Shown here: positions 3,908-16,922 of the stretch, one piece after another
Numbering within the stretch: position 1 is the stretch's first letter
Layout: the number at the start of each line of letters is the position of its first letter
DNA from: an uncultured Actinomycetes bacterium
Lineage (GTDB): Bacteria; Actinomycetota; UBA4738; HRBIN12
Assembly (NCBI GenBank): GCA_963723855.1
Contig: CAVRSI010000015.1
Coordinates: forward strand, 195,553-259,552
DNA length: 64,000 bases
Reading direction: 5' to 3'
Notes under the pieces: model-generated
The model's database searches: none
The model's input: only the letters and a program-made list of their open reading frames with translations
Told to the model about the DNA's origin: nothing
Translations under genes and position numbers: made by a program

Positions 3908-4268
3908 CTACGACGCGAACTCGAACCGGGGGTTCACCATGCGAACCTCGCCGCGCTTGTCCCCCAGCACCCCTTCGACGATGACCTTCGTTCCCAGCGT
4001 CATCCCCTGGATCCCTCGCCGCCCCATGAACACGATGTTCGCGTCGCCGGTCCCGTCGTAGAGCAGCGCCTCGAGCGTCTCCTGCCCCTCGACGGGGAAG
4101 ACCGTGATCCGCCGAACCACGCCGGCGAGCTTCACCGGCTCCCGGAGCGGCGCTTCGGCGATGCGCGTCGTGCCCGGCACCTTCTCCGCCCAGCCGCGGA
4201 TCTCCGGCCGAAAGGCGTGCCTCGTCGCTCTCCTTCAGCCGGTCGAAGAAGCGACGGAAGACTGCCAT
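3908..4268 (-). CDS. OB-fold nucleic-acid-binding domain protein (actinobacterial type); one frame break near 4198-4212
   Basis: The N-terminus MAVFRRFFDRLKESDEARLSA (start of ORF 3489..4268) joins EIRGWAEKVPGTTRIAEAPLREPVKLAGVVRRITVFPVEG...MVNPRFEFAS (ORF 3908..4180) after a 1-nt shift. The family assignment is from memory of mycobacterial homologues. Confidence 0.6.
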
Positions 4269-4277
4269 GCTTCGGTG

Positions 4278-6543
4278 CTACGACGCTGCCATCGACGAGG
4301 CATCGGCCTGCCGGACCACGTCCTCGAGCTCGGACTTGCGCGTCTTCGAGATGTAGATCATCACGCCGAGGATGACGACGCACACGGCGGCGACCGCGAT
4401 CCGGAACGCGACGTCCGTCGGCGTGCGTGACCACGAGCGGTGCGATCAACAGCGCGACCAGGTTCATCACCTTGATCAACGGGTTCAATGCCGGGCCGGC
4501 CGTGTCCTTGAACGGGTCGCCCACCGTGTCGCCGATGACGGCGGCCTTGTGCGCGTCGCTGCCCTTGCCCCCGAAGTGCCCTTCCTCGATGTACTTCTTG
4601 GCGTTGTCCCATGCGCCGCCCGAGTTCGACAGCATCACGGCGAGCAGCTGTCCGGTGAGGATCGCGCCGGCCAGGAACGCCCCGAGCGCTTCGCCCTTCA
4701 ACAGGAAGCCGGCGATGACGGGCGAGAGCACCGCCAGCAGGCCCGGCGTCATCAGCTCACGGAGCGAGGTCTTGGTGCAGATGTCCACGACACGGCCGTA
4801 GTCCGGCTTCTCCGAGTAGTCCATGATCCCCGGGTGATCGCGGAACTGGTTCCGCACCTCGACGACGACCTGCGCCGCCGCCCGGCCGACCGCGCGGATC
4901 GCGAGCGACGAGAACAGGAACGCGACCGACCCGCCGAGCAACAGCCCCACGAGCACGTCCGGGTGGTCGACCCGGATGCCGATGAAGTTGAAGCCGGCGC
5001 CGCGCAGCGCTTCCTCGAACGAACCGAACAGCGACGTCGCCGCGATCACGGCCGTCGCGATCGCGAGCCCCTTCGTGATGGCCTTCGTGGAGTTCCCGAT
5101 GGCGTCCAGGCCGCCCAGGATCTCGGCCGGCCTGCCCTCGAACTCCCCGGACATCTCCGCGATGCCCTGCGCGTTGTCCGAGATCGGCCCGAACGTGTCC
5201 ATGGACACGACGACCCCGACCGTGGTCAGCATCCCCATGCCGGTGAGCGCGATGAAGTACAGGCGCTCGGCGTTCGAGTGACCCAGCAGGAACGCGGCCA
5301 TGATGTCCCCGGCGATCACGATGATCGACCACACGGTCGATTCGAGCCCGACGGAGAATCCCGCCAGGACCGTCGTCGCCGCCCCGGTGACGGTGGACTC
5401 CGCGATCTCCTGCACGGGCCGGTGTTTCGTATCGGTGAAGTGCTGCGTGAGCACCTGGATGATGCTCGCCAGGATCAGCCCGAACGCCACGGCGAAGCCC
5501 GGCTTCCATGAGTGCATGTAGGAGTTCGAGATCACGAACACGGCCGCGGCTGAGATGACCGCGGAGATGAAGAACCCGCGGTTGATGGCCTTCATCCCGT
5601 GCTCCTCTTCACTCCGAGGAGCCACGGCGAGGATCCCGATGATCGAGGTGATCACGCCGACCGCTCGCACGAACAGCGGGAACATCACGCCGGCGATCGC
5701 GCCGATCGACGAGCCGCTGTACGCGGCCGCGCCCAGGATCAAGGAGGCAACCAGCGTGACCTCGTAGGACTCGAACAGGTCCGCCGCCATCCCGGCGCAG
5801 TCGCCCACGTTGTCGCCCACGTTGTCGGCGATCGTCGCGGCGTTGCGCGGATCGTCCTCGGGGATCCCCTGCTCGACCTTGCCGACCAGGTCGGCGCCCA
5901 CGTCGGCCGCCTTCGTGAAGATGCCGCCTCCCACCCGCATGAACATCGCGAGCAGGGCGCCGCCGAACCCGAAGCCCACCAGGACGCTCGTGGCGTCCTG
6001 CTTGTAGATGAGCAGGATCACCGTCGCGCCGAACAGGCCGAGTCCTACCGTGAACATCCCGGCCACGCCGCCGGCGCGGAAGGCGATCCGGACCGCGCGC
6101 CGCAGGCCCGACTCACGCGCGGCGTTCGCCGTCCGGACGTTCGCCCGGACCGCGAGCCACATCCCCACGTAACCGGTCGTGGCGCTGAACACCGCGCCCA
6201 GGATGAACGCGAGCGAGCGCCCGAACTTGATCGAGAACTCGGAGTGCACGGCGTCCTTCGGTGCCGGAAGGATGAAGAACAGGATCACGGTCAGGAGGCC
6301 CAGGAAGACCGCGAGCGTCCGGAACTGGCGCGAGAGGTAGGCCTTCGCCCCCTCCTGGATCGCCTTGGCGATCTCCTTCATCTTCTCGGTGCCCTCGGGA
6401 GCTCCGAGCACCTCGCGCACCAGGTAGTAGGCGAACAGCAGGGCGATCAGCGAGACGCCCATGGTCACCCACAGGAACGTGTTTTCGAACGACCCGAATA
6501 CCGCTCGGATCGGGCCACTCTCCTGGGCCAAGACGCCGTGCAT
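4278..6543 (-). CDS. hppA: Membrane H+-translocating pyrophosphatase, K+-independent type; one frame break near 4408-4424
   Basis: ORF 4132..6582 from [10 protein letters not shown] carries typical H+-PPase blocks ([72 protein letters not shown]). [10 protein letters not shown] has Lys at the position that is Ala in K+-dependent enzymes. After LVVTHAD the track frame turns Arg-rich; the shifted frame gives a final TM helix, [44 protein letters not shown], with its stop at 4278-4280. Confidence 0.9.
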
Positions 6544-6605
6544 CGAACCTCCTCGAGATGTGTGGGAGCGTGCCTCTCTCACCCGACCGGGCCGGGAACG
6601 CGTGA

Positions 6606-6611
6606 AGTATA
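6606..6611 (-). promoter_or_regulatory. Candidate -10 box TATACT upstream of hppA, inside a 10-mer (CCTATACTTC) shared with the riboswitch at 15560
   Basis: The coding-strand sequence TTCATTGCCTATACTTCACG lies about 60 nt upstream of the hppA ATG. An identical CCTATACTTC occurs at 15566-15575. No convincing -35 was found. Confidence 0.3.
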
Positions 6612-6660
6612 GGCAATGAACTGGTCGCCGACCTGCGAGAACGGTGGCTCAGCGACAGGA

Positions 6661-7023
6661 TCAGCGGGCGATCCAGTAGCCGAGCCCGGCGACCAAGAAC
6701 GCCGGCGGGCCGGAGAGCAACAGGTTCCAGCCCACGTAGCGCCATGCCCCGTCCTCGATCAGCTGCACCGTCTCGTACGTGAAGGTCGAGAACGTGGTGA
6801 ATCCGCCGATCACGCCGGTGCCGACGAACGTGAGCCATGTCGCCGAGACGTGCCCGGCGGTCGCGGCGCCGACCAGGAGTCCCAAGGCGAAGCTCCCAAC
6901 CAGATTCACCACCAGCGTGCTCAACGGGAACGGGCTGCGTTGGCGGGGAGCGATCACTCCCTCAACCGAATACCGAAGCAGCGCGCCCAACCCGCCACCG
7001 GCGGCAACGGAAAGCGCGATCAT
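6661..7023 (-). CDS. crcB: Fluoride channel CrcB/FluC (distal copy)
   Basis: 120 aa: MIALSVAAGGGLGALLRYSV...LSTLVVNLVGSFALGLL...TGVIGGFTTFSTFTYET. This is the CrcB signature with four TM segments. It has an ATGA overlap with the upstream DUF190 gene. Confidence 0.9.
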   Translation of the reverse strand: MIALSVAAGGGLGALLRYSVEGVIAPRQRSPFPLSTLVVNLVGSFALGLLVGAATAGHVSATWLTFVGTGVIGGFTTFSTFTYETVQLIEDGAWRYVGWNLLLSGPPAFLVAGLGYWIAR

Positions 7024-7361
7024 CCGGGATGGGTTCCCCGGTAGGAACGGACCTCCACCCGTTCGACGGTCACCAGCCCGTCGCCGACCATCGGATCGAT
7101 CTCCTCGATGAACGCGTCGATACGGTCGACCGTGTCGACGATCTCGATCAACAGCGGGAGGTCCTCTGAGAGACGAAGGATGCGTGCGGTGTGCAACCGC
7201 GAGCTGGCGCCGAATCCCTCGATCCCCCGGATCACGGTCGCTCCGGCAAGCCCCCGCTCGTGTGCGAGGTGGACGATCTCCTCGTACAGGGGTTTGTGCT
7301 GCCACGTATCCGATTCCCCGATGAAGATCCGCAACAGCTTGCATTCGCCTTCGAGCTTCAT
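7020..7361 (-). CDS. DUF190 (PII-like) protein, commonly linked to crcB
   Basis: 113 aa: MKLEGECKLLRIFIGESDTWQHKPLYEEIVHLAHERGLAGATVIRGIEGFGASSRLHTARILRLSEDLPLLIEIVD. It is sandwiched between two crcB genes, with ATGA overlaps on both sides. Confidence 0.8.
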   Translation of the reverse strand: MKLEGECKLLRIFIGESDTWQHKPLYEEIVHLAHERGLAGATVIRGIEGFGASSRLHTARILRLSEDLPLLIEIVDTVDRIDAFIEEIDPMVGDGLVTVERVEVRSYRGTHPG

Positions 7362-7732
7362 CGATCCTCCCTCGGCCTCGCCGGACCGAACCGTCCGGTC
7401 CAGATCCCGTAGACCCCCGCCGCCTGACCGGCGACCAGCGTGGCGAGCCAATACACGAGCGCCGTCCGTACATGGCCCGTATCGATGAGCTTGACCCCTT
7501 CCACGGCCATCGTCGAGAAGGTCGTGTAGGCGCCGAAGAACCCGATCGCGACCAAGGGGCGCATGAATCGGGTCGGCCTGAGCCGCTCGGAAAGCAACAC
7601 GGCGACGACGCCCAGCCCGAACGCCCCGGTGACGTTGACGAAGAACGTCGCCCACGGGAACGCCCCTTGATCGCCGGCGAACGCAAGGCCGATCCGCCAT
7701 CGGGCGAGCGCTCCCACGGCGCCGCCGACCAT
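7358..7732 (-). CDS. crcB: Fluoride channel CrcB/FluC (proximal copy); an alternative GTG start at 7765
   Basis: MVGGAVGALARWRIGLAF...WATFFVNVTGAFGLGVV...IGFFGAYTTFSTMAVEG matches CrcB. Paired crcB genes suggest a heterodimeric channel. Confidence 0.85.
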   Translation of the reverse strand: MVGGAVGALARWRIGLAFAGDQGAFPWATFFVNVTGAFGLGVVAVLLSERLRPTRFMRPLVAIGFFGAYTTFSTMAVEGVKLIDTGHVRTALVYWLATLVAGQAAGVYGIWTGRFGPARPREDR

Positions 7733-7829
7733 GACCGCCGCGGTCCGTGCATGCGAAGGCTTCACGATCGCCGAGCGTCTCAGACGGCCAGGTTCCATCG
7801 AGGCGATGCACCGATCGTGGCGCCTGTTC

Positions 7830-8366
7830 TCAAAGCTCGTCTCGCTTGCGGAAGAAGGCGACCGCAGCACGCCGCCGGCTCTCGTTCGAGACGTACTGAG
7901 GACGTTCGTAGGCGTCGACCGCAAGCGTCCCTTGCCAGTCGATGAACGGCTCGATGGTCGAGTGGTCGATCCCAGCCGCAGCCGCCTCTTCCTCGAGCCG
8001 ACGCAATTCGGTCCGCAAGCGTTGCGCCTCCAACTTCAGGAGCGGCACGATATCTCGGTCGAGCTTGATATACGCCAGGAACGCTTCGCGCTCAGCCTCC
8101 TCGGACACCGCGAACCGCGCACGGTTGGTCACGAGCAGGATGCGCAGCTCCGCAACTGACGCGGCGGATGCGGCGCACCGGATCCTCAGACCTTCGATCC
8201 TGGAACGACCGGTGTCACCGCTTCCGCTGAACGCGGGATCATCCTCAGCCACGATGCGGACCCCTCTGTCGCACGCTTCCGCGATCAACGCCTCCTGGGA
8301 AAGCTCCGGGCGTACCGCCTTCGCGCGGTCAAGATCGGCCTTGAAGATCCTCATGGGCTCGCTCAC
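7830..8366 (-). CDS. Hypothetical protein (178 aa from GTG 8366, or 174 aa from ATG 8354), second gene behind riboswitch A
   Basis: Clean ORF: (VSEP)MRIFKADLDRAKAVRPELSQEALIAEACDRGVRIVAEDD...LKLEAQRLRTELRRLEEEAAAAG...FFRKRDEL. GTG 8364-8366 overlaps the stop of the upstream gene (GTGA). I recognise no family. Confidence 0.6.
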   Translation of the reverse strand: MSEPMRIFKADLDRAKAVRPELSQEALIAEACDRGVRIVAEDDPAFSGSGDTGRSRIEGLRIRCAASAASVAELRILLVTNRARFAVSEEAEREAFLAYIKLDRDIVPLLKLEAQRLRTELRRLEEEAAAAGIDHSTIEPFIDWQGTLAVDAYERPQYVSNESRRRAAVAFFRKRDEL

Positions 8367-8830
8367 GTACTGCCCTCGCCGATCGCAGCGCGAAGGGCGA
8401 CGATCCGGGCTCGGTACGCGTCGATATCCCGTTGCAGACGGGGGAGCATCCAATCGACGGTCTGCTCGATCTCTCTTCGATACATCCGCGTGGACAATTC
8501 GCGCTTGCGGGTTTCCTTCGAACCATCGAACCAGGCGTAGCGGGTCACTGGGATCAGGGACTCCACAGATCTCACCACGTTCTCCAGGCGGTCGAGACGC
8601 TCTTCGTCCGTCGGGAGGCTGCTTAGCTCAGCCTCCACGACGATGTCGAAAAGGCCGGCTTCCAGGATGAACCGTCGCTCGGACGTGTCGATCGGCATGG
8701 CGGGCGACTCGGGCTCGGCGACGTCGATGAACTCCTCGGCGACGTATTCGTAGTCCAGGTCGCGCACCATCGGACGTAACGATCCGAGGTCGGGAGTGGG
8801 TCGCTTGAGCGAGTGATCCGATCCGGTCAT
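8363..8830 (-). CDS. Hypothetical acidic protein (155 aa), first gene behind riboswitch A
   Basis: ORF: MTGSDHSLKRPTPDLGSLRPMVRDLDYEYVAEEFIDVAEPES...RMYRREIEQTVDWMLPRLQRDIDAYRARIVALRAAIGEGST. The ATG lies only 2 nt after the GGAGG of the riboswitch platform, so the start could instead be the internal Met at 8770. I recognise no family. Confidence 0.6.
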   Translation of the reverse strand: MTGSDHSLKRPTPDLGSLRPMVRDLDYEYVAEEFIDVAEPESPAMPIDTSERRFILEAGLFDIVVEAELSSLPTDEERLDRLENVVRSVESLIPVTRYAWFDGSKETRKRELSTRMYRREIEQTVDWMLPRLQRDIDAYRARIVALRAAIGEGST

Positions 8831-8898
8831 GGCCTCCTACCTCGATCCGGTAGGAGCCATCAGCTCAGCGTGAGCGGGTTCGGCGAGCTCCATCGCCC
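8831..8898 (-). promoter_or_regulatory. Fluoride riboswitch (crcB motif), copy A: aptamer 8849-8898 plus an SD-sequestering helix
   Basis: Minus-strand RNA: GGGCGAUGGAGCUCGCCGAACCCGCUCACGCUGAGCUGAUGGCUCCUACC-GGAUCGA-GGUAGGAGGCC-AUG. Elements are P1 GGCG/CGCC, loop GAUGGAGCU, an AAC linker, P3 GCUCA/UGAGC, CUGAU, and a 3' GCUCC complementary to the loop GGAGC (pseudoknot), then CCUAC. CUCCUACC pairs with GGUAGGAG and masks the SD. A TAAGAT -10-like box is at 8910-8915. Confidence 0.8.
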
Positions 8899-8968
8899 TT
8901 CGACATCACATCTTAAGCCCTCAACCGGTTCGGCGCGTCCGTTCCGAGCTCGGTGTCAGCGGCATGAT

Positions 8969-10491
8969 CTACTGCCCGAGGTCAGTGGCCGTCCGCCCTT
9001 CGGTGTCCCGGGCGGTATCGAAGATGCGCCAGTAGGCGTCCTCGCCGAAGCTGGTTGGCAATGGTTCACCTTCGATGAGTCGGAACGTGCGCCGACCGTC
9101 GGGCTGCCGTTCGGCGCGAAGGAAGTAGGCAGTGTCCAGCTGCTGGATGTAGAAGCCGTGCGCGAGGTCGAACAGGTGCGTGACGAAGAAGACCTTGACG
9201 CCGGCATCTATCGATGCGCGGACGACTTGCCGGGCGATCTCGGAGCCCTCTCGCTCGTTCGTTGCCGAGAACGACTCGTTGCACAGCAAGAGGGAGTTCG
9301 GCGTGATCATGTCGGCGAGGTCGCTCATCCTCCCGAGCTCTTCGTCCAGCTTGCCGCTCTGCATCGTGACGTCTTCTCCTCGTTTGAAGTGCGTGAAGAC
9401 ACCGGTACAGACGTTGGCGCTGAAGGACTCCGCACCGACGAACATCCCGCTCTGCATCATCAGTTGCGCCGATCCGACGCTGCGCAGGAACGTCGACTTG
9501 CCGCCCTGGTTGGCGCCGGTGATCATGACGAGCAGCTTGCTCGCCGCTGTGACGTCATTGCCGACGACATCGTTCGCCACGCTCAGCGCCAGACAAACGT
9601 CGTACATCCGTCGAGCGGTGAGCGACGGGCGATCCTCAACGATGGGCATCGGGAAGGACGTCGGCTCTCCCTTCGCCGTCAGGCGTTCGTGCACATTCAC
9701 GCAGCCGATGTAGAAGCCGGTTTCCGCCCGCAACAGATCGAAGAAGCTGCGGATGTAATCGGCGGACTGAGCGAGCACGTTGGCAACCTGGTTGATCCTT
9801 TCGCTCGCAGGTCGCCCAGCGCCCTCGCCCCGCTCTCGTCGCGATCCGCGATCTGGAAGCTGAGGCCGGACCTGCCCCTGCGAGTGATCCGCTGCCTCCA
9901 GCTCAGCGTGGGGAGCGTCCGCAGCACGTAGTGGACGCCCTTGTTGCCCCTCCCGAGCTCGGCACTCATCAAGACGCCGCGCTCGAACCGCAACTCCTCG
10001 AGACGATCCTCGATGGTTCGGAAGTACGCGTCGTCCAGCTCCTCCGCGAGCATCGCGAAGAAACGCACGAAGCCATCGGACCGGAACCCTCCGGCGTGAT
10101 CGTCCGCGAGCCTGCGAAGCTGCCTGAGCGAACCCACGAACACCTCCATGGACTGGAGCGATCGCGTGAGGACGGCTTGCGGGGACATGAACGCGCCCCA
10201 GATCTTCTTCTCTTCCATGATCGCGCCGGCGGCGACCTGATAGATCTGTCTGACGACGGACGGTCGCTCCAGGCAGTCGGTCAGCACGTGCTGCCGGTAG
10301 ATGATCGCCTCCGGGCTCGTCAGGCTCGTCAGAACGGCCTTCCTCGCCACGTCGAACAGGAACGGGTCACCGGCCGCCATCGCGTTGAAGAGGATGTTCA
10401 GCTCGAGGTCTTGGGTGAGCGATCCTTCGTTCGACGGGAGTTCGCGCTGGAGGTCGAAGTCATCGTCCTCGTACATCAGGAAAGCCTTCAT
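8969..10491 (-). CDS. MutS-related ABC-type ATPase B (MutS domains III/V only); one frame break near 9796-9800
   Basis: The N-terminal half is ORF 9697..10491 (MKAFLMYEDDDFDLQRELPSNEGSLTQDLELNILFNAMAAGDPFLF...). The C-terminal half is ORF 8969..9778 (Walker A ITGANQGGKSTFLRSVG, LLLCNESFSATNEREG, Walker B/signature region). The two join as ...LRAKG-INQVANVLAQSADYIRSFF. There is no mismatch-binding domain I and no Smr/nuclease domain. Confidence 0.8.
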
Positions 10492-12020
10492 CGCACGTAT
10501 CCGCCTCCGCAGCGTCTCGTACGTAGGCCGTACTTCTCGGCGATGGCAGCGGCATAGGCAAGTCCGTCTGCGGGCTTCCTGGTGATCTTAACGTTCGCGT
10601 CGCGGGGTCATCGGGCACGACCGCGCTCACCATGCTGACCGTGACCTCGCTGAGGGAGGACAGCTCGTCCATGAAGGTCACGCACACGCACAACGAGTGC
10701 AACGCGATCAACCGATCCGTCACTTCCGTGCCGAGGAACACGGCGTCACGAAGCGAGGTCGAGTTGAAGCTCTCGTTCATGATGACGACGCTGTCGCTGG
10801 TCGCCAGGCGGAGGATTCGTGGAAGCTACCAGTTCATCCTCGAGCTTTCCGCGGAGGGTCGCGAGGTTCTCTTCCCGTTCGAAATGCGCGAAGACGTGAT
10901 CGGGCAGGGAGAGGTGCGCTGCCTTCGCAGGAACGAGACAACCGAGGTTGGCGAGATGATGCAGCTGGCCGAACATCCGTGCGAACGTCGTCTTCCCGCC
11001 TTGGTTCGGACCGGTAACGACGATGACGCGTTCCGGCTCCGTGAGATCGAACGAGTTGCACACGACCTCCGAACCCTGCGGGACGAGCTTGTTGGCGAGC
11101 GCGAGATCGAACGCATCGTGTGCGAACACGTGCTTCGCGCGAACGGACACGTGCGGGTAGCAGAACGGCAATCCGGCCGATCGGAACCGCTTGGCGTGCT
11201 CGAGATATGCCAGGTAGAACTGCACCTCCCGATCGAAGGTGCCGATGATCTGATCGAGGTAGTCACGGTGACGCACGCGATACTCGTCCAGCGCTCGCGA
11301 GACGTCGGGATACAGCTGTGCCACCAACTCGAACACGCGAGCTTCAACGGGATCCATGTCCAGCGAAGCAGTGAGTTTGACCCGGTGATCCCCCACGGCG
11401 CCGTGCTTGAACTTCGCGAACGTCTCCACGACCTCTGCGCTGAAGTCAGGCTCTCCCTCGTACCTGCTGACCGTGACCCGGTTCCCAGCGATGTGAACGC
11501 AGTACTTCACCGAAGCCAAGGCGTCCTTCAGCTCACGCGTTGCCGATATGAGTGACGTGAACGTCACGGACGCGGTGTAGTCCAGGATGTAGTCGCGGAA
11601 CGCCCGCAGGCCACGTGATGTCAATCCGAGAGATGCGAACCCTTCAGCCAGCGATCGAACCGCGTCGCAGTAGACCTCCACCGCCTCAACGAACCAACGC
11701 TTCTTCTGCGATGTGTAGTAGAGCTTCTCCACCTGAGCGAGATGCGCGCGCATCTCCTGCATGCGTCGCGAGAAGGCCTGGATGGCTTCCATGACCGCGC
11801 CATCCTCGAGGTCACGGAATACCTCATGCCGGTAGTACACGGCTTCGACGTCGCGCAACGGCGTGTAGAAGAAGGGCTTCAGTTGGTACTCGTCGCGACC
11901 GGCCGTTATCGACTCCACCACCTGATCGAGATTCAGGTCGCGGAAGAACCCGGGCTCTTCGAGCTCGTCGATCACGACGCTGCTCGGAGGCTGGTCGAAG
12001 AGGACGCTGTGGAACCGCAC
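10488..12020 (-). CDS. MutS-related ABC-type ATPase A (MutS domains III/V only); at least two frame breaks (10586-10594, 10818-10832); start revised to GTG 12020 (or 12032)
   Basis: ORF 10746..12164 contains (V)RFHSVLFDQPP...PGFFRDLNLDQVVESI and Walker A VTGPNQGGKTTFARMFG. It continues in ORF 10460..10780 (VIMNESFNSTSLRDA...VCVTFMDEL) and then in a third frame (KITRKPADGLAYAAAIAEKYGL...). The stop TGA 10488-10490 overlaps the ATG of ATPase B. The first 44-48 codons of the track ORF are occupied by riboswitch C and its leader. Confidence 0.75.
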
Positions 12021-12153
12021 GTCCCGACGCACCGGAGAGCCGTTCGGGTTCCGGAGCCTGCCGAGCTCCTGGGTCCCTCCGCCGGTGAAGGATCCTCGCT
12101 CGCTCGTGATACGCCTCCTTCCGCTGACGTCCGAAGCGCCCCGAGGGGCAGCC

Positions 12154-12202
12154 GTAGAAGCCATCAGCGTCGGAAGACGCGGTTCAGGCGAGCTTCATCG
12201 CC
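12154..12202 (-). promoter_or_regulatory. Fluoride riboswitch (crcB motif), copy C, aptamer; leader extends to about 12021
   Basis: Minus-strand RNA: GGCGAUGAAGCUCGCCUGAACCGCGUCUUCCGACGCUGAUGGCUUCUAC. Elements are P1 GGCG/CGCC, P3 GCGUC/GACGC, and loop GAAGC paired with 3' GCUUC. That pseudoknot carries a compensated double change relative to GGAGC/GCUCC in copies A and B. A TAACAT -10-like box lies at 12209-12214, 6 nt upstream. An SD-like GGAAGGAGG near 12114-12122 has no canonical start after it. The first in-frame GUGs are at 12032 and 12020. Confidence 0.75.
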
Positions 12203-12247
12203 ACCCCGATGTTAGCCCAGGAGGCGACGGACGGATGGCCTCGACCG

Positions 12248-12874
12248 CTATCCGTCTGACGTCGATCCCGCGAGCAGGCCGATGATGCGTCGCGCCGCGA
12301 GCGAGCGTTGTTCCGGGTCGTTGGCCGAGACTCGGGCGCGCGCGCTGAGCGCGAGGAGGGAGCGACGCTGCGTCGCGATGAGGAACCGCAGAGTGGACCG
12401 ACCGGGGCGAGTCCGACCGCCATGCTGAGATGCGGCCGGCAGATGCCGGTCGACACCTGATAGGCGGCGAGCACGTCGGGCTCGGCGAGCGCGTCGAAGA
12501 GCATCCCGAGCACCGACCGCCCTCGACGTTCTACCGCCGCGCATACGGGACACGCAGGTGGCCCCTCGGCCACACCCGCTCCGAAGTCCTCCGAGGCGGC
12601 CTGAGCAGATCCGCGAAAGGAGCCGCGCGCCCGCCGCCCCCAGATCCCCTCCTCGTCGGTCGAACACGCTCGCCCAGTGGGGCGCACAGAGTCCGCGGGA
12701 GTCGACGGTCTTGTCAATCGTCTCCTCTTCCCGGATGTTCGTGGTCGCGAGCCACGACAGGACCGCCCGTTCGGTCTCCCCCGCCAGCCGGCAGACGGGA
12801 CATCCGTCGCTACGAAGTGCGAGACCGAGCTCGGCCTCGAGGAGAATCTCGCGGAGAGGTTTCCGCTTCGTCAC
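12248..12874 (-). CDS. Hypothetical protein with two CPVC motifs (putative zinc-binding); two frame breaks (12398-12408, 12599-12614)
   Basis: Reconstructed from ORFs 12248..13243 and 12184..12717: VTKRKPLREILLEAELGLALRSDGCPVCRLAGETERAVLSWLATTNIREEETIDKTVDSRGLCAPHW...ARLLSRI / AQAASEDFGAGVAEGPPACPVCAAVERRGRSVLGMLFDALAEPDVLAAYQVSTGICRPHLSMAVGLAPV / RSTLRFLIATQRRSLLALSARARVSANDPEQRSLAARRIIGLLAGSTSDG. Its GTG start overlaps the phosphatase stop (GTGA). Confidence 0.55.
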   Translation of the reverse strand: MTKRKPLREILLEAELGLALRSDGCPVCRLAGETERAVLSWLATTNIREEETIDKTVDSRGLCAPHWASVFDRRGGDLGAAGARLLSRICSGRLGGLRSGCGRGATCVSRMRGGRTSRAVGARDALRRARRARRARRLSGVDRHLPAASQHGGRTRPGRSTLRFLIATQRRSLLALSARARVSANDPEQRSLAARRIIGLLAGSTSDG

Positions 12875-13504
12875 ATGCGCAGGGAGTCTTGTGCTCGACC
12901 TGCCTGTCGGAACAGGTCTTCGAGGACGGTCGGCACCTGCAGCCCTTCGTCGGTCGCCCGCAGCTCGATCACGGAGCCCGGCGACACGTCCGGGTCCCAA
13001 AACGCCGTTCCTTCGAGCCCCTTCAGACGCACGAGCACCAGCCGGATGAGGAGCTCGTGCGTGACCACGGCCACCGCTCGTTCGGGGTGCCGACCGCCTA
13101 TCGACTCCAGGGCCCTGAATGCACGTCGCTCGGCGGCCGCCATGCTCTCTCCGGAGGGGAAGGTCGCCGCCGCCGGGAACCGGAAGTAGAAGTCGAACGC
13201 TCTCGGCTCCGACTCCCTGATCGAGCGGCGTGCGAGCCACCACGAGCCCACGTCGACATCGGTCAGATCACTTCGATCGGCGTGGAACCACACCGACGGA
13301 ACGCCCGATGACGTCGGCGGTCTCCCGGGCGCGACGCCGGGGACTGGTGTAGATCGCGGAGACGTCCTCGAGAGCCAGACGCTCCGCCGCGCGCCGCGCA
13401 TCGTCCACGCCTTGCGCGGTCAGCGGGTCGTCCGTCTGTCCTTGCAGCCGACCTTCACTACTGAGAGCGGTCCGACCGGCTCGCACCACGAACAACGATG
13501 TCAT
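12871..13504 (-). CDS. Histidine-phosphatase (phosphoglycerate-mutase-like) fold protein with RAG in place of the catalytic RHG; one frame break near 13289-13306
   Basis: N-terminus from ORF 13268..13633: MTSLFVVRAGRTALSSEGRLQGQTDDPLTAQGVDDARRAAERLA...IYTSPRRRARETADVIG. C-terminus from ORF 12871..13401: VWFHADRSDLTDVDVGSWW...FRFPAAATFPSGESM...VAVVTHELLIRLVL. The codons read CGA GCC GGT, that is R-A-G. Confidence 0.7.
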
Positions 13505-13701
13505 CGGGAGCTCCCCCCATGTATGGCTTCCGCCGACGGCACATCCGGTGCGGTACGGATCGACATCGCCACGTGATCCCAGTCGATGCGGAGCAGCTCG
13601 ACCGGTCTGACGCGCGGGACGAACCGATTCCAATCCACGTCGACATCTTCGATCCGTCGCTCGCGCAGCGCAGGCGTCAGGTGCGGATAGGCGGAGGTCA
13701 T
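13501..13701 (-). CDS. Possible separate 66-aa ORF between the dynamin-like and phosphatase genes
   Basis: MTSAYPHLTPALRERRIEDVDVDWNRFVPRVRPVELLRIDWDHVAMSIRTAPDVPSAEAIHGGSSR. GGAGG lies 4 nt upstream of the ATG at 13699-13701. As sequenced it is in frame with the dynamin ORF. Removing one C from the C5 run at about 13712-13716 would end the dynamin gene with an ATGA overlap onto this ATG. Confidence 0.35.
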   Translation of the reverse strand: MTSAYPHLTPALRERRIEDVDVDWNRFVPRVRPVELLRIDWDHVAMSIRTAPDVPSAEAIHGGSSR

Positions 13702-15483
13702 GGCGCCTCCATCACCACCATGACGGGGGCCGGTCGCGGCCGTTTGGAACGCCTCACGGAGCTGGTCGAGCCGGCGTCGATCGACCCGCGCATCTTCCTT
13801 GGCTCGCAGGGCGTCTTCGGCCGACCGCTGCCGATCGCGTTCGGAGCGTTCGAATCCCCGCACCGAGGCTCTCGATGGTCGCTTCCAGGCTCCGGTCCAA
13901 TGCCGATCCAAGGTCACGGCGACTCCGGTCGAGCCGCTGCACGAAGTCCCAGTGAAGGCGTCCCATGTGCTTGTCGACGAGCGAAGGAGTCGCTCCCTCA
14001 AGGTCGCGCAGGAACAGGCGCCGCGCCGTCTCTCGCGGCAGGAACCGGCGAACGTCCGGCAGGATCGACTCGATGATCGATGGAGGTTCGAAGAAGCTGA
14101 AACTGAACGGGGTCCGGAAGACAGCTCGACGAGATGGCCCTCGGAAACGAGCTGGATCCCGAGGATCTCGCCGCACAGCCGGACGGTCTCCCGCTCGGTA
14201 CCGTCCGCCTCCTCGACGAAACGGGCCGTTGCGTCCCGGAACGCGGCGGAGAGCGTCTGCTCCTCGAGTCCGCGCCAGTGGCCGATATCGGTGCGGAGCG
14301 CCTCCCTCAAGAACACGAACCCCTCGTCGTCCCGCGCGATGCGCCGGACGTCCTCAAGCGAGGCAACGTGTTCCTCGACGGCAGACGTCAGGCGGGTCTC
14401 CTCCTCGGAACGAAGCTGTTCCAGATCCTGCTCGAGACGGGACACGAGCGCCTCGGCCTCCTGATCGAGAAGAGCGTGCATGTCGCGTTGTCTCGATCGA
14501 GCCTGGGCGAATACCTCCTGCATGCGCCGACGAGCCTCTTCCAGCTCCTGGACGGGGAGATCGAGCGCCCGCTCCTGCACCTCCAGCGCGTTGCGCTCGT
14601 CGTCCACCAGCCGCAGCGCACGCCCGGCCACGGAGGCCAGGATGGCCCGCCCTTTCTCGTCCAGCAGGAACGTCCGGAAATCACGTTCGAACGCGGGGAG
14701 CCCCGAAGCCTCCAACTCGCGGTCGTCTCCGGCGAGCTTCGCCCGGAGCGCCCGGCGGGCGCTCAAGGGATAGACAACGACGTCCTGCCCGACGGCTTCT
14801 TCGATAACCCGATGTGTGAACGCGATGGACTCGTCACGGTCGAGCCCCGACAGGTAGTCGATCTTGTTCAGGACGAAGAAGAGACGCGCCGTCTCCCCGC
14901 GAACTCCTCGAGGAACGCACGCTCCGTCTCGGAGAATTGGCGGGTCCGCAGAGGTGAGGAAGACGGCGGCGTCGGATTCGGAGAGGAAGGCGCGCGCCGC
15001 CTCGGTGTTGCGCTGGTAAACGCTGCCGACGCCGGGCGTATCGACTAGGAACACCCCGTCACGCAGATCTTCCGACGGGTACGACACCACGGCCCTCGCG
15101 ACCCCCAGCGCATTGTCCGGGTTGCCTCGCTCGGTCACGTACGTAGCGAGATCCGTCACGTCGACGTCCTCTTCGCGGCCGTCGAGATAGCCGATCCGAG
15201 CTCGGATCTCCCTCCCCCACGTCACCGCCGTGACGATCGAGGTGAGTGGCACGACGGCGGAAGGAAGCACGTCTGCGCCGAGGAGTGCATCCACGAACGT
15301 GGTCTTGCCCCGTTTGAACTCGCCGAAGACCACGACGTTGAATCGGTTCTCGACGAGCTTCTTGTCGAGGGCCCGTGCAGCGTCTGTGACGGCCCGGCTC
15401 TCGCGTCGGTCGGCGAACTCGGCGAGATCGTCGAGCGCCACGAGAAGCCTGTCCCGCTCCTCCGCGTAGGTTCGTTGACCCAT
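13699..15483 (-). CDS. Bacterial dynamin-like GTPase (BDLP family); four frame breaks inferred (13855-13862, 14125-14140, and a compensating pair at 14893-14900 / 14932-14938); 3' end uncertain
   Basis: ORF 13501..15483 has G1 VVVFGEFKRGKTTFVDALLG, G3 FLVDTPGVGS and G4 FFVLNKIDYL, followed by long coiled-coil-like stalk sequence. The middle of the C-terminal part is in ORF 13754..14176 (FRTPFSFSFFEPPSIIESILPDVRRFLPRETARRLFLRDLEGATPSLVDKHMGRLHWDFVQRLDRS...). It is the first gene after riboswitch B. Confidence 0.8.
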
Positions 15484-15560
15484 GGAAAAGCTCCTACCTC
15501 TGCATCCAGGTAGGAGCTATCAGCTCGCCGGGGCGAGCGGTTAGGCGAGCTCCATCGCCT
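15484..15560 (-). promoter_or_regulatory. Fluoride riboswitch (crcB motif), copy B: aptamer 15509-15560 plus an SD-sequestering, terminator-like helix at 15484-15520
   Basis: Minus-strand RNA: AGGCGAUGGAGCUCGCCUAACCGCUCGCCCCGGCGAGCUGAUAGCUCCUACC-UGGAUGCAG-AGGUAGGAGC-UUUUCC-AUG. Elements are P1 GGCG/CGCC, loop GAUGGAGCU, an AAC linker, P3 GCUCGC/GCGAGC, CUGAU, and a 3' AGCUCC complementary to the loop GGAGCU, then CCUAC. GCUCCUACCU pairs perfectly (10 bp) with AGGUAGGAGC and masks the SD AGGAG. A TATACT -10-like box lies at 15568-15573, 7 nt upstream. Confidence 0.85.
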
Positions 15561-15649
15561 CACCCGAAGTATAGGGGAGCGGAGGAGCGAACCTTCCCAA
15601 GGATCGCCAACGACGATGGTCGACTCTCCCCGCTCCGTAAACTCGCAGG

Positions 15650-16922
15650 ATGAGCTATCAGATCGATTCGATACGTGCGCTGGAGAGTCCTGGATTCCCG
15701 AGGCAGACCGACGCTGCACGTGACCCTGGGACTCGTCGGAGGCGCGATCGGGACGGCCGGCGTGCCATCCGGCGCGTCGACCGGGACCCGCGAGGCCGTC
15801 GAGAGGCGGGACGGCGACCAGGAGCGGTTCGAAGGCGCGGGCGTCCAGCGGGCCGTCATGACCGTCGAAGGGGAGATCGCGGACGCCGTGACCGGCCGCG
15901 ACTGGGAGTCTCTGGCGGAACTCGATCATGCCCTGATCGGGTTGGACGCAACGCCTAACAAGGAACGGCTCGGCGCGAACGCCATCGTCGGTGTCTCCAT
16001 GGCGGCGGCTCGCGCGATGGCGGCGGCCGACGAGCGTCCGCTCTACGAGTGGCTGGCTCCGTCGGGATACGCGCCACGTCTTCCCGTCCCGCACTTCAAC
16101 GTCATCAACGGCGGGGCGCACGCCGGCAACCAGCTCGCGTTCCAGGAGTTCATGATCGCGCCGATCGGCGCGCCGAGTTTCCGCGAAGCGCTGCGGGCCG
16201 GCGCTGAGACCTACGCCATGCTCCGGCACGGACTGAAGGAGGCCGGCTACGCGACCGGTCTGGGCGATGAAGGCGGCTTCGCTCCGGAGATCTCGGAGCC
16301 GGAGGAGGCGTTGGACCTCCTCGTCGAGGCCATCCGGGCCGCCGGATACGAACCCGGCCGGGACTCGGTCGCGATCGCGCTCGATCCAGCGGCGTCGGGC
16401 TTCCGTGCGGAAGACGGCATGTACGAGGTGACCGAGGCACGGCTGACCTCGGCGGAGATGACCGAGCGCTACGCGCAGATGGTGGACCGCTATCCGGTGT
16501 GGTCGATCGAGGACGGGCTCGCGGAAGACGATCCGGAAGGGTGGACCGAGTTGACCCAACGCCTCGGCGACCGGATACAGATCATCGGGGACGATAATTT
16601 CGTCACGAACCCGGGCCTCATACGGGAGGCCATCGCGCATGGCATCGGCAACGCTGCGCTCATCAAGCTGAACCAGATCGGGACCGTCACGGAAACCCTC
16701 GAAGCGATCGAGGTCAGCCGATCGGGCGGGTACGCGCAGATGATCTCGCACCGGTCCGGAGAGACATGCGATCCATTCATCGCCGACCTGGCGGTCGCCG
16801 TGGGCTGTGGCCAGATCAAGTCCGGGGCCCCGGCTCGAGGCGAGCGACTCGCGAAGTACAACCGCCTTCTCGAGATCGAGCTGGGGCTGGACCGTCCGAC
16901 GTTCGGCCTCGTACCCAAGTGA
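15650..16922 (+). CDS. eno: Enolase, divergent copy (SHRSGETCD instead of SHRSGETED); one extra base near 15683-15687
   Basis: ORF 15675..16922 has VLDSRGRPTL, VPSGASTGTREA, GDEGGFAP, LIKLNQIGTVTET, SHRSGETCDPFIADLAV and RGERLAKYNRLLEIE. The canonical N-terminus MSYQIDSIRALE is in ORF 15650..15958, one frame off. It joins as ...IRALE-VLDSRG. Confidence 0.9.

Follow-up and report, generated by a model that had tools for sequence, protein, structure and literature searches.

The window analyzed here is a 64,000-nucleotide stretch of contig CAVRSI010000015.1 (GenBank assembly GCA_963723855.1, positions 195,553 to 259,552 of the forward strand) from an uncultured Actinomycetes bacterium. Its positions 8969-12020 hold, on the minus strand, two adjacent genes for MutS-like ATPases, mutS4A and mutS4B (hereafter also A and B), which stand behind a fluoride riboswitch. 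Six-frame translation places the pair exactly where a preliminary description, made from the sequence alone, had put it. The two genes belong to a named but functionally obscure family, MutS4, that proves to occur, in bacteria and archaea alike, almost exclusively in fluoride islands, and their products, to judge by conserved sequence features, most probably work as an obligate heterodimer whose two composite ATP sites are unequal. The elements on which the argument turns are given below; riboswitch scores refer to Rfam model RF01734, which has a gathering score of 34 bits.

12020..10488, minus strand: mutS4A, MutS-like ATPase A; GTG start at 12020, TGA stop at 10490-10488, 511 residues after frame repair
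10491..8969, minus strand: mutS4B, MutS-like ATPase B; ATG start at 10491, TAG stop at 8971-8969, 507 residues after frame repair
15568-15504, minus strand: fluoride riboswitch RS1, 49.0 bits, ahead of a dynamin-like GTPase gene
12211-12148, minus strand: fluoride riboswitch RS2, 45.2 bits, E 2.6e-09, model positions 1-64 of 64
8906-8844, minus strand: fluoride riboswitch RS3, 52.6 bits, directly after mutS4B
12168-12114, minus strand: putative expression platform of RS2, a hairpin and the stretch that follows it in the minimum-free-energy fold

Neither gene can be read directly from the assembly. In the raw window A is broken over three frames and B over two, and the window's own gene call, P0002, comprises 424 residues. 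Single-base insertions or deletions (indels) interrupt A at 10828, 10817, 10590, 10525 and 10498, while B is interrupted once, by an assembly deletion at 9799. A second contig, L083, which matches 9.9 kb of the window at 97.7% identity, carries the frame-restoring base at all six sites; we therefore read the frameshifts as long-read assembly errors and, on this comparative evidence, regard both genes as intact in vivo. L083 has indels of its own elsewhere (11394 and 9250), and its alignment with the window contains 81 gap openings spread over all genes. A homologue of A that is 87% identical, P0001, is likewise intact across the five indel sites of that gene.

Repair against L083, with six corrections in total, yields proteins of 511 and 507 residues, which are the modal lengths of the respective families. 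A aligns end to end with homologues of 510-511 residues, the homologues of B span 500-509 residues, and the repaired proteins retain every invariant family residue. The A protein begins with M/V-RFHSVLFDQ at 12020 and closes with ...RRRIVR*, its TGA lying inside an ATGA at 10491-10488, such that the start codon of B, whose N-terminus reads MKAFLMYEDDDFDL from 10491, overlaps the stop codon of A. The locus shows 60-87% identity to many database entries and is an ordinary member of its family. The source assembly is error-prone over about 4000-16500 of the window by comparison with L083, where many genes, among them the dynamin-like gene, both mutS4 genes and probably more, look frameshifted, so any reading of this part of the window from open reading frames (ORFs) needs frame repair.

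The domain content of the pair is sparse. Pfam reports MutS_V as the sole domain above threshold in the unrepaired fragments, in the repaired proteins (E-values of 8e-20 for A and 1.4e-17 for B) and in the intact orthologues P0003 and P0123, and the same domain is the only one above cut-off in 105 relatives, 52 of A-type and 53 of B-type. Neither the repaired nor the intact proteins matched MutS_I or MutS_II at E <= 10, and they, like the fragments and the 105 relatives, gave no match to MutS_I, II, IV or Smr even at E <= 1; no other nuclease domain was found in either the repaired proteins or these relatives. A faint MutS_III match in one protein (E 0.18) was the single exception. The preliminary description had proposed paired ATPases with MutS-type Walker A motifs that lack a mismatch-binding domain I and any nuclease, and had named the appearance of either domain after frame repair as grounds for abandoning the idea; the scan of the repaired proteins found neither, and the Walker A motifs, GPNQGGKTT in A and GANQGGKST in B, stand at mapped coordinates. 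The NCBIfam equivalog models for MutS, MutS2 and KamC match at 39-58 bits against cut-offs of 300-642: 46-58 bits against 480-642 for MutS, 39-57 against 400 for the MutS2 model TIGR01069, and 40.7 and 56.3 against 300 for KamC (NF052383), in the last case over the ATPase core only.

Pairs of this description were defined in 2007 as MutS4A and MutS4B, in which MutSac (domain V) alone is recognizable, in two adjacent paralogous copies whose function was unknown (Lin, Nei and Ma 2007, PMC2190696). In the same work MutS4A's stop codon overlaps the start codon of MutS4B, and the pair is scattered patchily over distantly related bacteria and some archaea, Thermoanaerobacter included (Lin, Nei and Ma 2007, PMC2190696). 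The pair was then known from five bacteria and two archaea, its founding members coming from Thermoanaerobacter tengcongensis, Thermoplasma and Ferroplasma, and riboswitches went unmentioned (Lin, Nei and Ma 2007, PMC2190696). The window pair displays each of these organizational features, namely MutS_V alone, adjacent paralogues and a stop/start overlap, and differs in no structural respect from the pair of Lin et al.; we assign it to MutS4A/MutS4B by these defining features of gene organization. A Thermoanaerobacter genome (L005) holds the pair at 56-58% identity with the same overlap.

What has changed since 2007 is scale and setting: the genomes of at least 598 species now contain relatives, which nearly always sit in fluoride islands, and the A-type N-domain accounts for 2,097 clusters at 50% identity (689 with E <= 1e-30). 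The suspicion that the locus represents a widespread MutS-related pair of unknown function was well placed, and the pair has a name. Databases label the relatives "MutS-related protein," "MutS domain V" or, misleadingly, "DNA mismatch repair protein MutS." Replacing so vague an annotation with the MutS4 pair provides a defined and testable system, for which cultured hosts exist.

Structural comparison gives shape to the part of each protein that domain models miss. Profiles of A and B align to solved structures mainly over the ATPase region (residues 318-507 of A), with the MutS2 core of T. thermophilus, 7vuf, as the best match (E of 1e-21 for A and 1e-17 for B); against B. subtilis MutS2 the alignment of B extends back to residue 206. 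Both alignments run to the C-terminal SYG/AYA helix-turn-helix of domain V, which is retained and at which both proteins terminate. In MutS this helix-turn-helix mediates dimerization. An AlphaFold model of B, built from 128 sequences that mix both paralogues with a Firmicute clade, superseded an earlier model of A and is good, with a predicted local distance difference test score (pLDDT) of 81.5 and a predicted template-modeling score (pTM) of 0.81. Searched against the PDB with Foldseek, it retrieves exclusively MutS, MSH and MutS2 at E about 1e-15 and query template-modeling scores (TMq) of 0.5-0.6, and the matches cover about 500 columns, nearly the whole protein; the target score (TMt) against the T. 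thermophilus MutS2 core is 0.52. The N-terminal 300 residues of the model are long lever/core helices, which bears out the core/clamp-like N-terminal half proposed at the outset, while in place of the clamp (domain IV) there is a short segment, residues 171-216, that is predicted to be disordered. That tip carries a charge of +3.8 on average in B, a protein with a net charge of -7.9 overall, and its counterpart in A is neutral. By sequence and model, then, each protein appears to consist of a MutS lever/core, a much reduced clamp tip and an ATPase of the ATP-binding cassette (ABC) type, domain V, with C-terminal dimerization helices.

The ATP sites set the family apart from other MutS proteins. 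Conservation was assessed by a motif census over species, with 80 sequences for A and 68 for B.

11012..10986, minus strand: A, Walker A, GPNQGGKTT; Lys invariant in 80/80
10789..10766, minus strand: A, Walker B, VVIMNESF; Asn in place of the canonical Asp, N-E in 80/80
10684..10661, minus strand: A, H-loop position, CVTFMDEL; Thr-Phe with the histidine missing, T-F in 80/80
9517..9491, minus strand: B, Walker A, GANQGGKST; G, N, G, G, K and S invariant in 68/68
9292..9269, minus strand: B, Walker B, LLLCNESF; Asn-Glu, N in 68/68
9187..9164, minus strand: B, H-loop, FVTHLFDL; Thr-His retained, T-H in 68/68

At the signature position the census finds R-G-K in A and S-G-K in B, where MutS and MutS2 have S-T-F; at Walker B these proteins have Asp-Glu. 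The N-E of A aligns to the D-E of MutS2, and the Walker B segment of B aligns to LVLLDEVG of Taq MutS and LVLIDELG of MutS2 with its Asn opposite the Asp of DE(L/V)G. The H-loop of B aligns to ATHYFEL of Taq MutS. In dimers of the ABC type each ATP site is assembled from the Walker A, Walker B and H-loop of one subunit and the signature of the other. An H-loop histidine that is fixed in one paralogue only therefore points to two unequal ATP sites and a probable obligate heterodimer.

The consequences of the Walker B substitution may be gauged from an engineered mutant of the mismatch-repair protein. E. coli MutS D693N has lower affinity for Mg2+ and ATP, and its ATPase is strongly dependent on Mg (Lebbink et al. 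2010, PMC2857095); switching is impaired and repair activity is partial (Lebbink et al. 2010, PMC2857095; PDB 3k0s). The same Asp-to-Asn state is natural and invariant in MutS4A and MutS4B, where it may have similar consequences.

Gene organization points the same way as the motifs. The family comparison drew on 80 loci from 80 species of many phyla, in every one of which, as in the window, B follows A on the same strand (80/80). The junction overlaps by exactly 4 nucleotides, as ATGA or GTGA, in 72 of the 74 junctions that could be assessed. A profile-profile alignment by hhalign pairs A19-483 with B19-474 at a probability of 99.9 over 428 columns and 23% identity. A and B are thus translationally coupled paralogues. 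The heterodimer that the preliminary description had read from one ATGA overlap gains from this adjacency, from the conserved overlaps, from paralogy over the full length and from the complementary T-F and T-H motifs, which together argue for it as the most likely arrangement. Two apparent A-B fusions, P0379 (1026 residues) and P0384 (800 residues), were considered as Rosetta-stone evidence and rejected: their linkers are out-of-frame garbage, and they are therefore frameshift artifacts. Precedents for paralogous heterodimers with functionally unequal ATP sites exist in the eukaryotic MSH2-MSH6, MSH2-MSH3 and MSH4-MSH5, whose fold the MutS4B model matches, although these proteins are much larger, have complete domains II-IV and a canonical Walker B, and are not stress-regulated. 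Domain I is missing from MSH4-MSH5 too, which serves as a clamp at DNA junctions.

The second line of evidence is regulatory. RS2 ends 128 nucleotides upstream of the GTG start of mutS4A, and its 45.2 bits stand well clear of the gathering score, which substantiates the dedicated riboswitch that had been proposed for the pair. Rfam detects 16 fluoride riboswitches in nine of 11 phylogenetically spread MutS4 loci, and a custom covariance model (R1) built from the riboswitches of those loci was used, at E <= 0.1, to search the window and 82 related loci. The search returned 172 matches in 1.08 Mb; within the 64-kb window it found RS1-RS3 only, with RS2 at 56.9 bits. Among the 80 species loci, 72 contain at least one fluoride riboswitch, and in 52 a riboswitch on the same strand ends 1-450 nucleotides before A, at a median of 98 nucleotides; the count for this direct placement falls to 37 of 80 when matches are held to at least 35 bits. 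In many of the remaining loci the riboswitch lies further upstream, with co-directional genes in between. The pairing of riboswitch and gene is far beyond chance. Placement behind a riboswitch had been taken initially to argue for a role in the fluoride response rather than in mismatch repair, and these counts, together with neighbors drawn from the fluoride regulon, argue for the same view across the family.

How RS2 might act is suggested by its predicted fold. The 3' strand of the aptamer, GCUGAUGGCUUCUAC (12168-12154), pairs with CGUCAGC (12129-12123) around an inner GCCCCUCGGGGC stem, and the hairpin is followed by a GGAAGGAGG stretch at 12122-12114. This competing hairpin, GCUGAUGG...CGUCAGC, would constitute the putative expression platform. 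In the Firmicutes loci L005 (Thermoanaerobacter) and L017 (Formimonas), upstream of mutS4A, the aptamer 3' strand is the 5' arm of a textbook terminator with a U-run, which is the standard design of a fluoride ON-switch. We infer that RS2 controls expression of mutS4 through the predicted platform. RS2 starts only about 36 nucleotides after the end of the upstream ORF. It may therefore regulate both read-through from the RS1 transcript and transcription starting at any internal promoter.

An association between this riboswitch class and mutS is not new: the entry "DNA repair (mutS)" already appears in a published list of genes found downstream of the crcB motif (Weinberg et al. 2010, PMC2864571), and it has been repeated since (Sherlock and Breaker 2020, PMC7266159). 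The crcB motif is the same riboswitch class as RS1-RS3, and the mutS genes of its regulon are the MutS4A/MutS4B pair. With the pair named in 2007 and the association published in 2010, the kind of system in the window has already been described. In the published crcB-motif literature that was searched, the mutS gene is not identified as the MutS4 pair, the association is not quantified and a dynamin-like GTPase goes unmentioned; MutS is absent from a review of fluoride resistance published in 2024. In the same literature, searches that combined the fluoride riboswitch with MutS, mismatch repair or dynamin returned nothing relevant. Baker et al. 2012 is reportedly a source on the regulon of the crcB motif and fluoride riboswitch.

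It was through fluoride riboswitches that the cellular export of fluoride came to light, and of the regulon members still to be explained the MutS-like genes are among the longest known, noted in 2010 and missing from the review of 2024. At the level of the family, the near-obligate coupling to fluoride riboswitches, the invariant Walker B Asn, the asymmetry of the H-loops between A and B, and the dynamin-like companion described below may be new.

Taken together, these features lead us to propose, with moderate confidence, that MutS4A and MutS4B constitute a fluoride-induced, asymmetric, heterodimeric ATP-switch clamp. Binding of fluoride to RS2 would permit read-through or translation of mutS4AB, so that the pair would be induced as part of a 12-kb island with three riboswitches, together with a dynamin-like GTPase, CrcB fluoride channels and an H+-pyrophosphatase. 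A and B would associate in a 1:1 ratio by way of domain V. The site built on B, which would combine the Walker A, Walker B and H-loop His of that subunit with the RGK signature of A, is probably the hydrolytic one, while the site built on A, without an H-loop histidine, is probably slow or regulatory, and would bind ATP or turn it over slowly. The dimer would then act not as a mismatch sensor but as a clamp or switch, gated by ATP, on a polyanionic substrate. The most probable candidate for this substrate would be DNA or some other nucleic-acid complex that is upset once Mg-dependent phosphoryl-transfer enzymes have been poisoned by fluoride. We favor such a substrate, if tentatively and at somewhat short of even chances, because most MutS-fold proteins of known role act on nucleic acids and because the tip of B is basic.

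Several points weigh against this proposal. The identity of the substrate is a guess, and the literature searched yielded no experiment on any MutS4 protein. The clamp is small, predicted to be disordered in B and neutral in A, and therefore may not encircle DNA in the way that the clamp of MutS1 does. The first AlphaFold model, of A from 52 close homologues, was poor (pLDDT 59); its Foldseek matches belong to the MutS family but reach template-modeling (TM) scores of only 0.2-0.4, the top one being 7qv3, an entry for MutS2 on collided disomes. On the regulatory side, neither a U-tract nor a canonical terminator lies downstream of RS2 in the window, shuffled sequence gives folds as stable as that of the leader (z -0.63), and a scan for promoters and terminators over 8700-15800 gave nothing useful in this high-GC DNA and located no promoter. 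No riboswitch lies within 6 kb in eight of the 80 loci.

The proposal could be carried further, to a machine dedicated to fluoride damage. MutS4AB, possibly with the dynamin-like GTPase, would rescue fluoride-frozen complexes of nucleic acids or nucleoside triphosphatases (NTPases), and the Walker B Asn would adapt the site to Mg-fluoride chemistry by resisting or sensing the trapping of nucleoside diphosphate with magnesium fluoride (NDP-MgFx). We consider this extension unlikely; were it true, the MutS fold would gain a new role in the cell, and fluoride defense a second layer besides export.

The window and its close relatives L001, L002 and L083 share one order: RS1, the dynamin-like GTPase gene, an ORF of 66 residues, a His_Phos_1 gene, a DUF6062-like gene, RS2, mutS4A, mutS4B and RS3, then two unannotated ORFs, (His_Phos_1), crcB, DUF190, crcB and an H+-pyrophosphatase gene. 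Upstream stand enolase and a major facilitator superfamily (MFS) gene. The main neighbors in the window are these.

15483-13640 (about), minus strand: dynamin-like GTPase gene behind RS1, Dynamin_N E 5.2e-23
13633-13268, minus strand: His_Phos_1 (phosphoglycerate-mutase-like) gene, between the dynamin-like gene and RS2
about 13243-12248, minus strand: DUF6062-like gene, between the dynamin-like gene and RS2
8830-8363, minus strand: unannotated ORF of 155 residues, first behind RS3
8453-7830, minus strand: unannotated ORF of about 177-207 residues, behind RS3 and ahead of crcB-DUF190-crcB
6582-4132, minus strand: H+-translocating pyrophosphatase gene, at the end of the array

The three riboswitches stand in series on a co-directional 12-kb array (15568-4132, minus strand), a layout that is kept in L001 and L002. 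Neither unannotated ORF behind RS3 has a match in Pfam, NCBIfam or PADLOC, and counterparts of both were found only in L001 and L002. Since tblastn over the 80 loci found no counterparts of these two ORFs, the 66-residue ORF, the H+-pyrophosphatase or NhaA, all of them appear to be lineage-specific companions.

Across the 80 loci the commonest neighbor is the dynamin-like GTPase (35 loci), followed by Proton_antipo_M or formate-hydrogenlyase-like subunits (20), MFS (17), enolase (16-20), DUF190 (13), DUF4129 with DUF58 (12), universal stress protein (USP; 11), CrcB (10) and a Na+/H+ exchanger (10). CrcB, Na+/H+ antiporters, enolase, pyrophosphatase, formate-hydrogenlyase-like complexes, USP and MFS match the published fluoride regulon, the dynamin-like GTPase being the one exception. 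Seventeen riboswitches directly precede a dynamin-like gene, and the gene sometimes joins the mutS4 operon, either as riboswitch, dynamin, A, B or as A, B, dynamin. No paper linking dynamin-like proteins to fluoride riboswitches was found in the literature searched. The GTPase encoded in the window has an aromatic "FSFSFFEPP" loop near residue 470.

Other functions can be imagined for a MutS4AB dimer, of which translation rescue in the manner of MutS2 holds up best, unlikely as we consider it. A/B would clamp stalled or collided ribosomes and split them with ATP, for example where fluoride-Mg complexes trap translational GTPases. MutS2, known as a ribosome-collision sensor or Smr endonuclease (PDB 7vuf, 7qv3, 9kce), is indeed the best sequence match among solved structures, as the E-values against 7vuf attest, with a comparable match in fold; the alignment of B from residue 206 onward is to MutS2 of B. 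subtilis, and the top Foldseek match of the A model is the collided-disome entry. The two also share an architecture of lever/core, clamp and ATPase, and domains I and II are absent from MutS4 as they are from MutS2. Yet MutS2 is a homodimer of about 785 residues with C-terminal KOW and Smr domains and an Asp-Glu Walker B, whereas MutS4 is a pair of paralogues of about 510 residues in which the clamp is reduced, Walker B reads Asn-Glu and nothing extends the C-terminus. In the published disome structure, KOW and Smr reportedly help to dock MutS2 on ribosomes, and MutS4 lacks both. Moreover, DNA-bound MutS and MSH give equally good fold scores, and none of the 80 loci has ribosome-related neighbors.

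MutS_V proteins need not act on DNA at all, since KamC, a MutS-like ATPase of about 508 residues, is annotated as the reactivase of lysine 5,6-aminomutase. A KamC-like MutS4AB might pry open Mg-dependent enzymes poisoned by fluoride, such as enolase, pyrophosphatase or NTPases holding NDP-MgFx. The weak matches of both proteins to the KamC model lend this some substance, as do enolase in 16-20 of the 80 neighborhoods and the H+-pyrophosphatase within the island of the window, and the altered residue at the Mg site could matter for Mg-fluoride chemistry. The same matches, however, fall far under the 300-bit cut-off and are limited to the ATPase core; the MutS4 locus has no aminomutase gene nearby, no client enzyme is a constant neighbor, and such an activity against fluoride complexes is without precedent. 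The prospect strikes us as improbable.

The dynamin-like GTPase raises the further thought of a membrane- or nucleoid-organizing module, in which it would work with MutS4AB in, for instance, membrane repair or chromosome handling under hydrogen fluoride (HF) or acid stress. It is the most frequent neighbor, it has riboswitches of its own, with RS1 ahead of it in the window, it is at times encoded in the same operon as A and B, and it shows a weak match to the clamp-binding dynamin-like protein CrfC. Against this, no such gene lies within 6 kb in 45 of the 80 loci, no transmembrane segment was found in the GTPase, and co-regulation by one ligand explains proximity without physical partnership; we think a module of this kind distinctly improbable.

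The remaining alternatives concern the genes themselves. Six frame-breaking indels within 3 kb might betray genuine pseudogenes with biological frameshifts, but this is very unlikely when a 97.7%-identical contig is correct at every site and has different indels of its own, when 81 indels in 9.9 kb affect all genes, when the 87%-identical relative P0001 is intact across the sites in A, and when the repaired proteins keep all invariant family residues. Canonical MutS1, or a MutS2 endonuclease that has merely been mis-split, has the database name "DNA mismatch repair protein MutS" in its favor and scarcely merits consideration against scores far below the MutS and MutS2 cut-offs, the lack of MutS_I, II, IV or Smr in 105 relatives and a length of about 510 residues rather than the roughly 800 of MutS and MutS2. 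Architecture excludes canonical mismatch repair, and MutS4 genes should not count as mismatch-repair capacity in genome surveys. A role in anti-phage defense was also considered and rejected: in PADLOC, A had no match and B had matches at the P-loop level only (E about 1e-3).

Some further observations concern MutS4 loci outside the window. A DUF4129/DUF58 (/MoxR-like AAA) set lies beside MutS4 pairs and riboswitches in L006, L010, L018-L020, L023, L025, L027, L039, L043, L047, L055 and L073, and no mention of it as part of the fluoride regulon was found. The actinobacterial locus L025 apparently contains, within 13 kb, two sets of MutS4 genes that run in opposite directions. Positions 1-13521 of L017, from the chromosome of Ca. 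Formimonas warabiya, form an extreme fluoride island, in which at least seven riboswitch matches fall within 13.5 kb, with predicted control over three dynamin-like genes, a Na+/H+ exchanger with USP, the MutS4 pair and crcB-DUF190; coming from a cultured organism, this locus offers a good experimental model.

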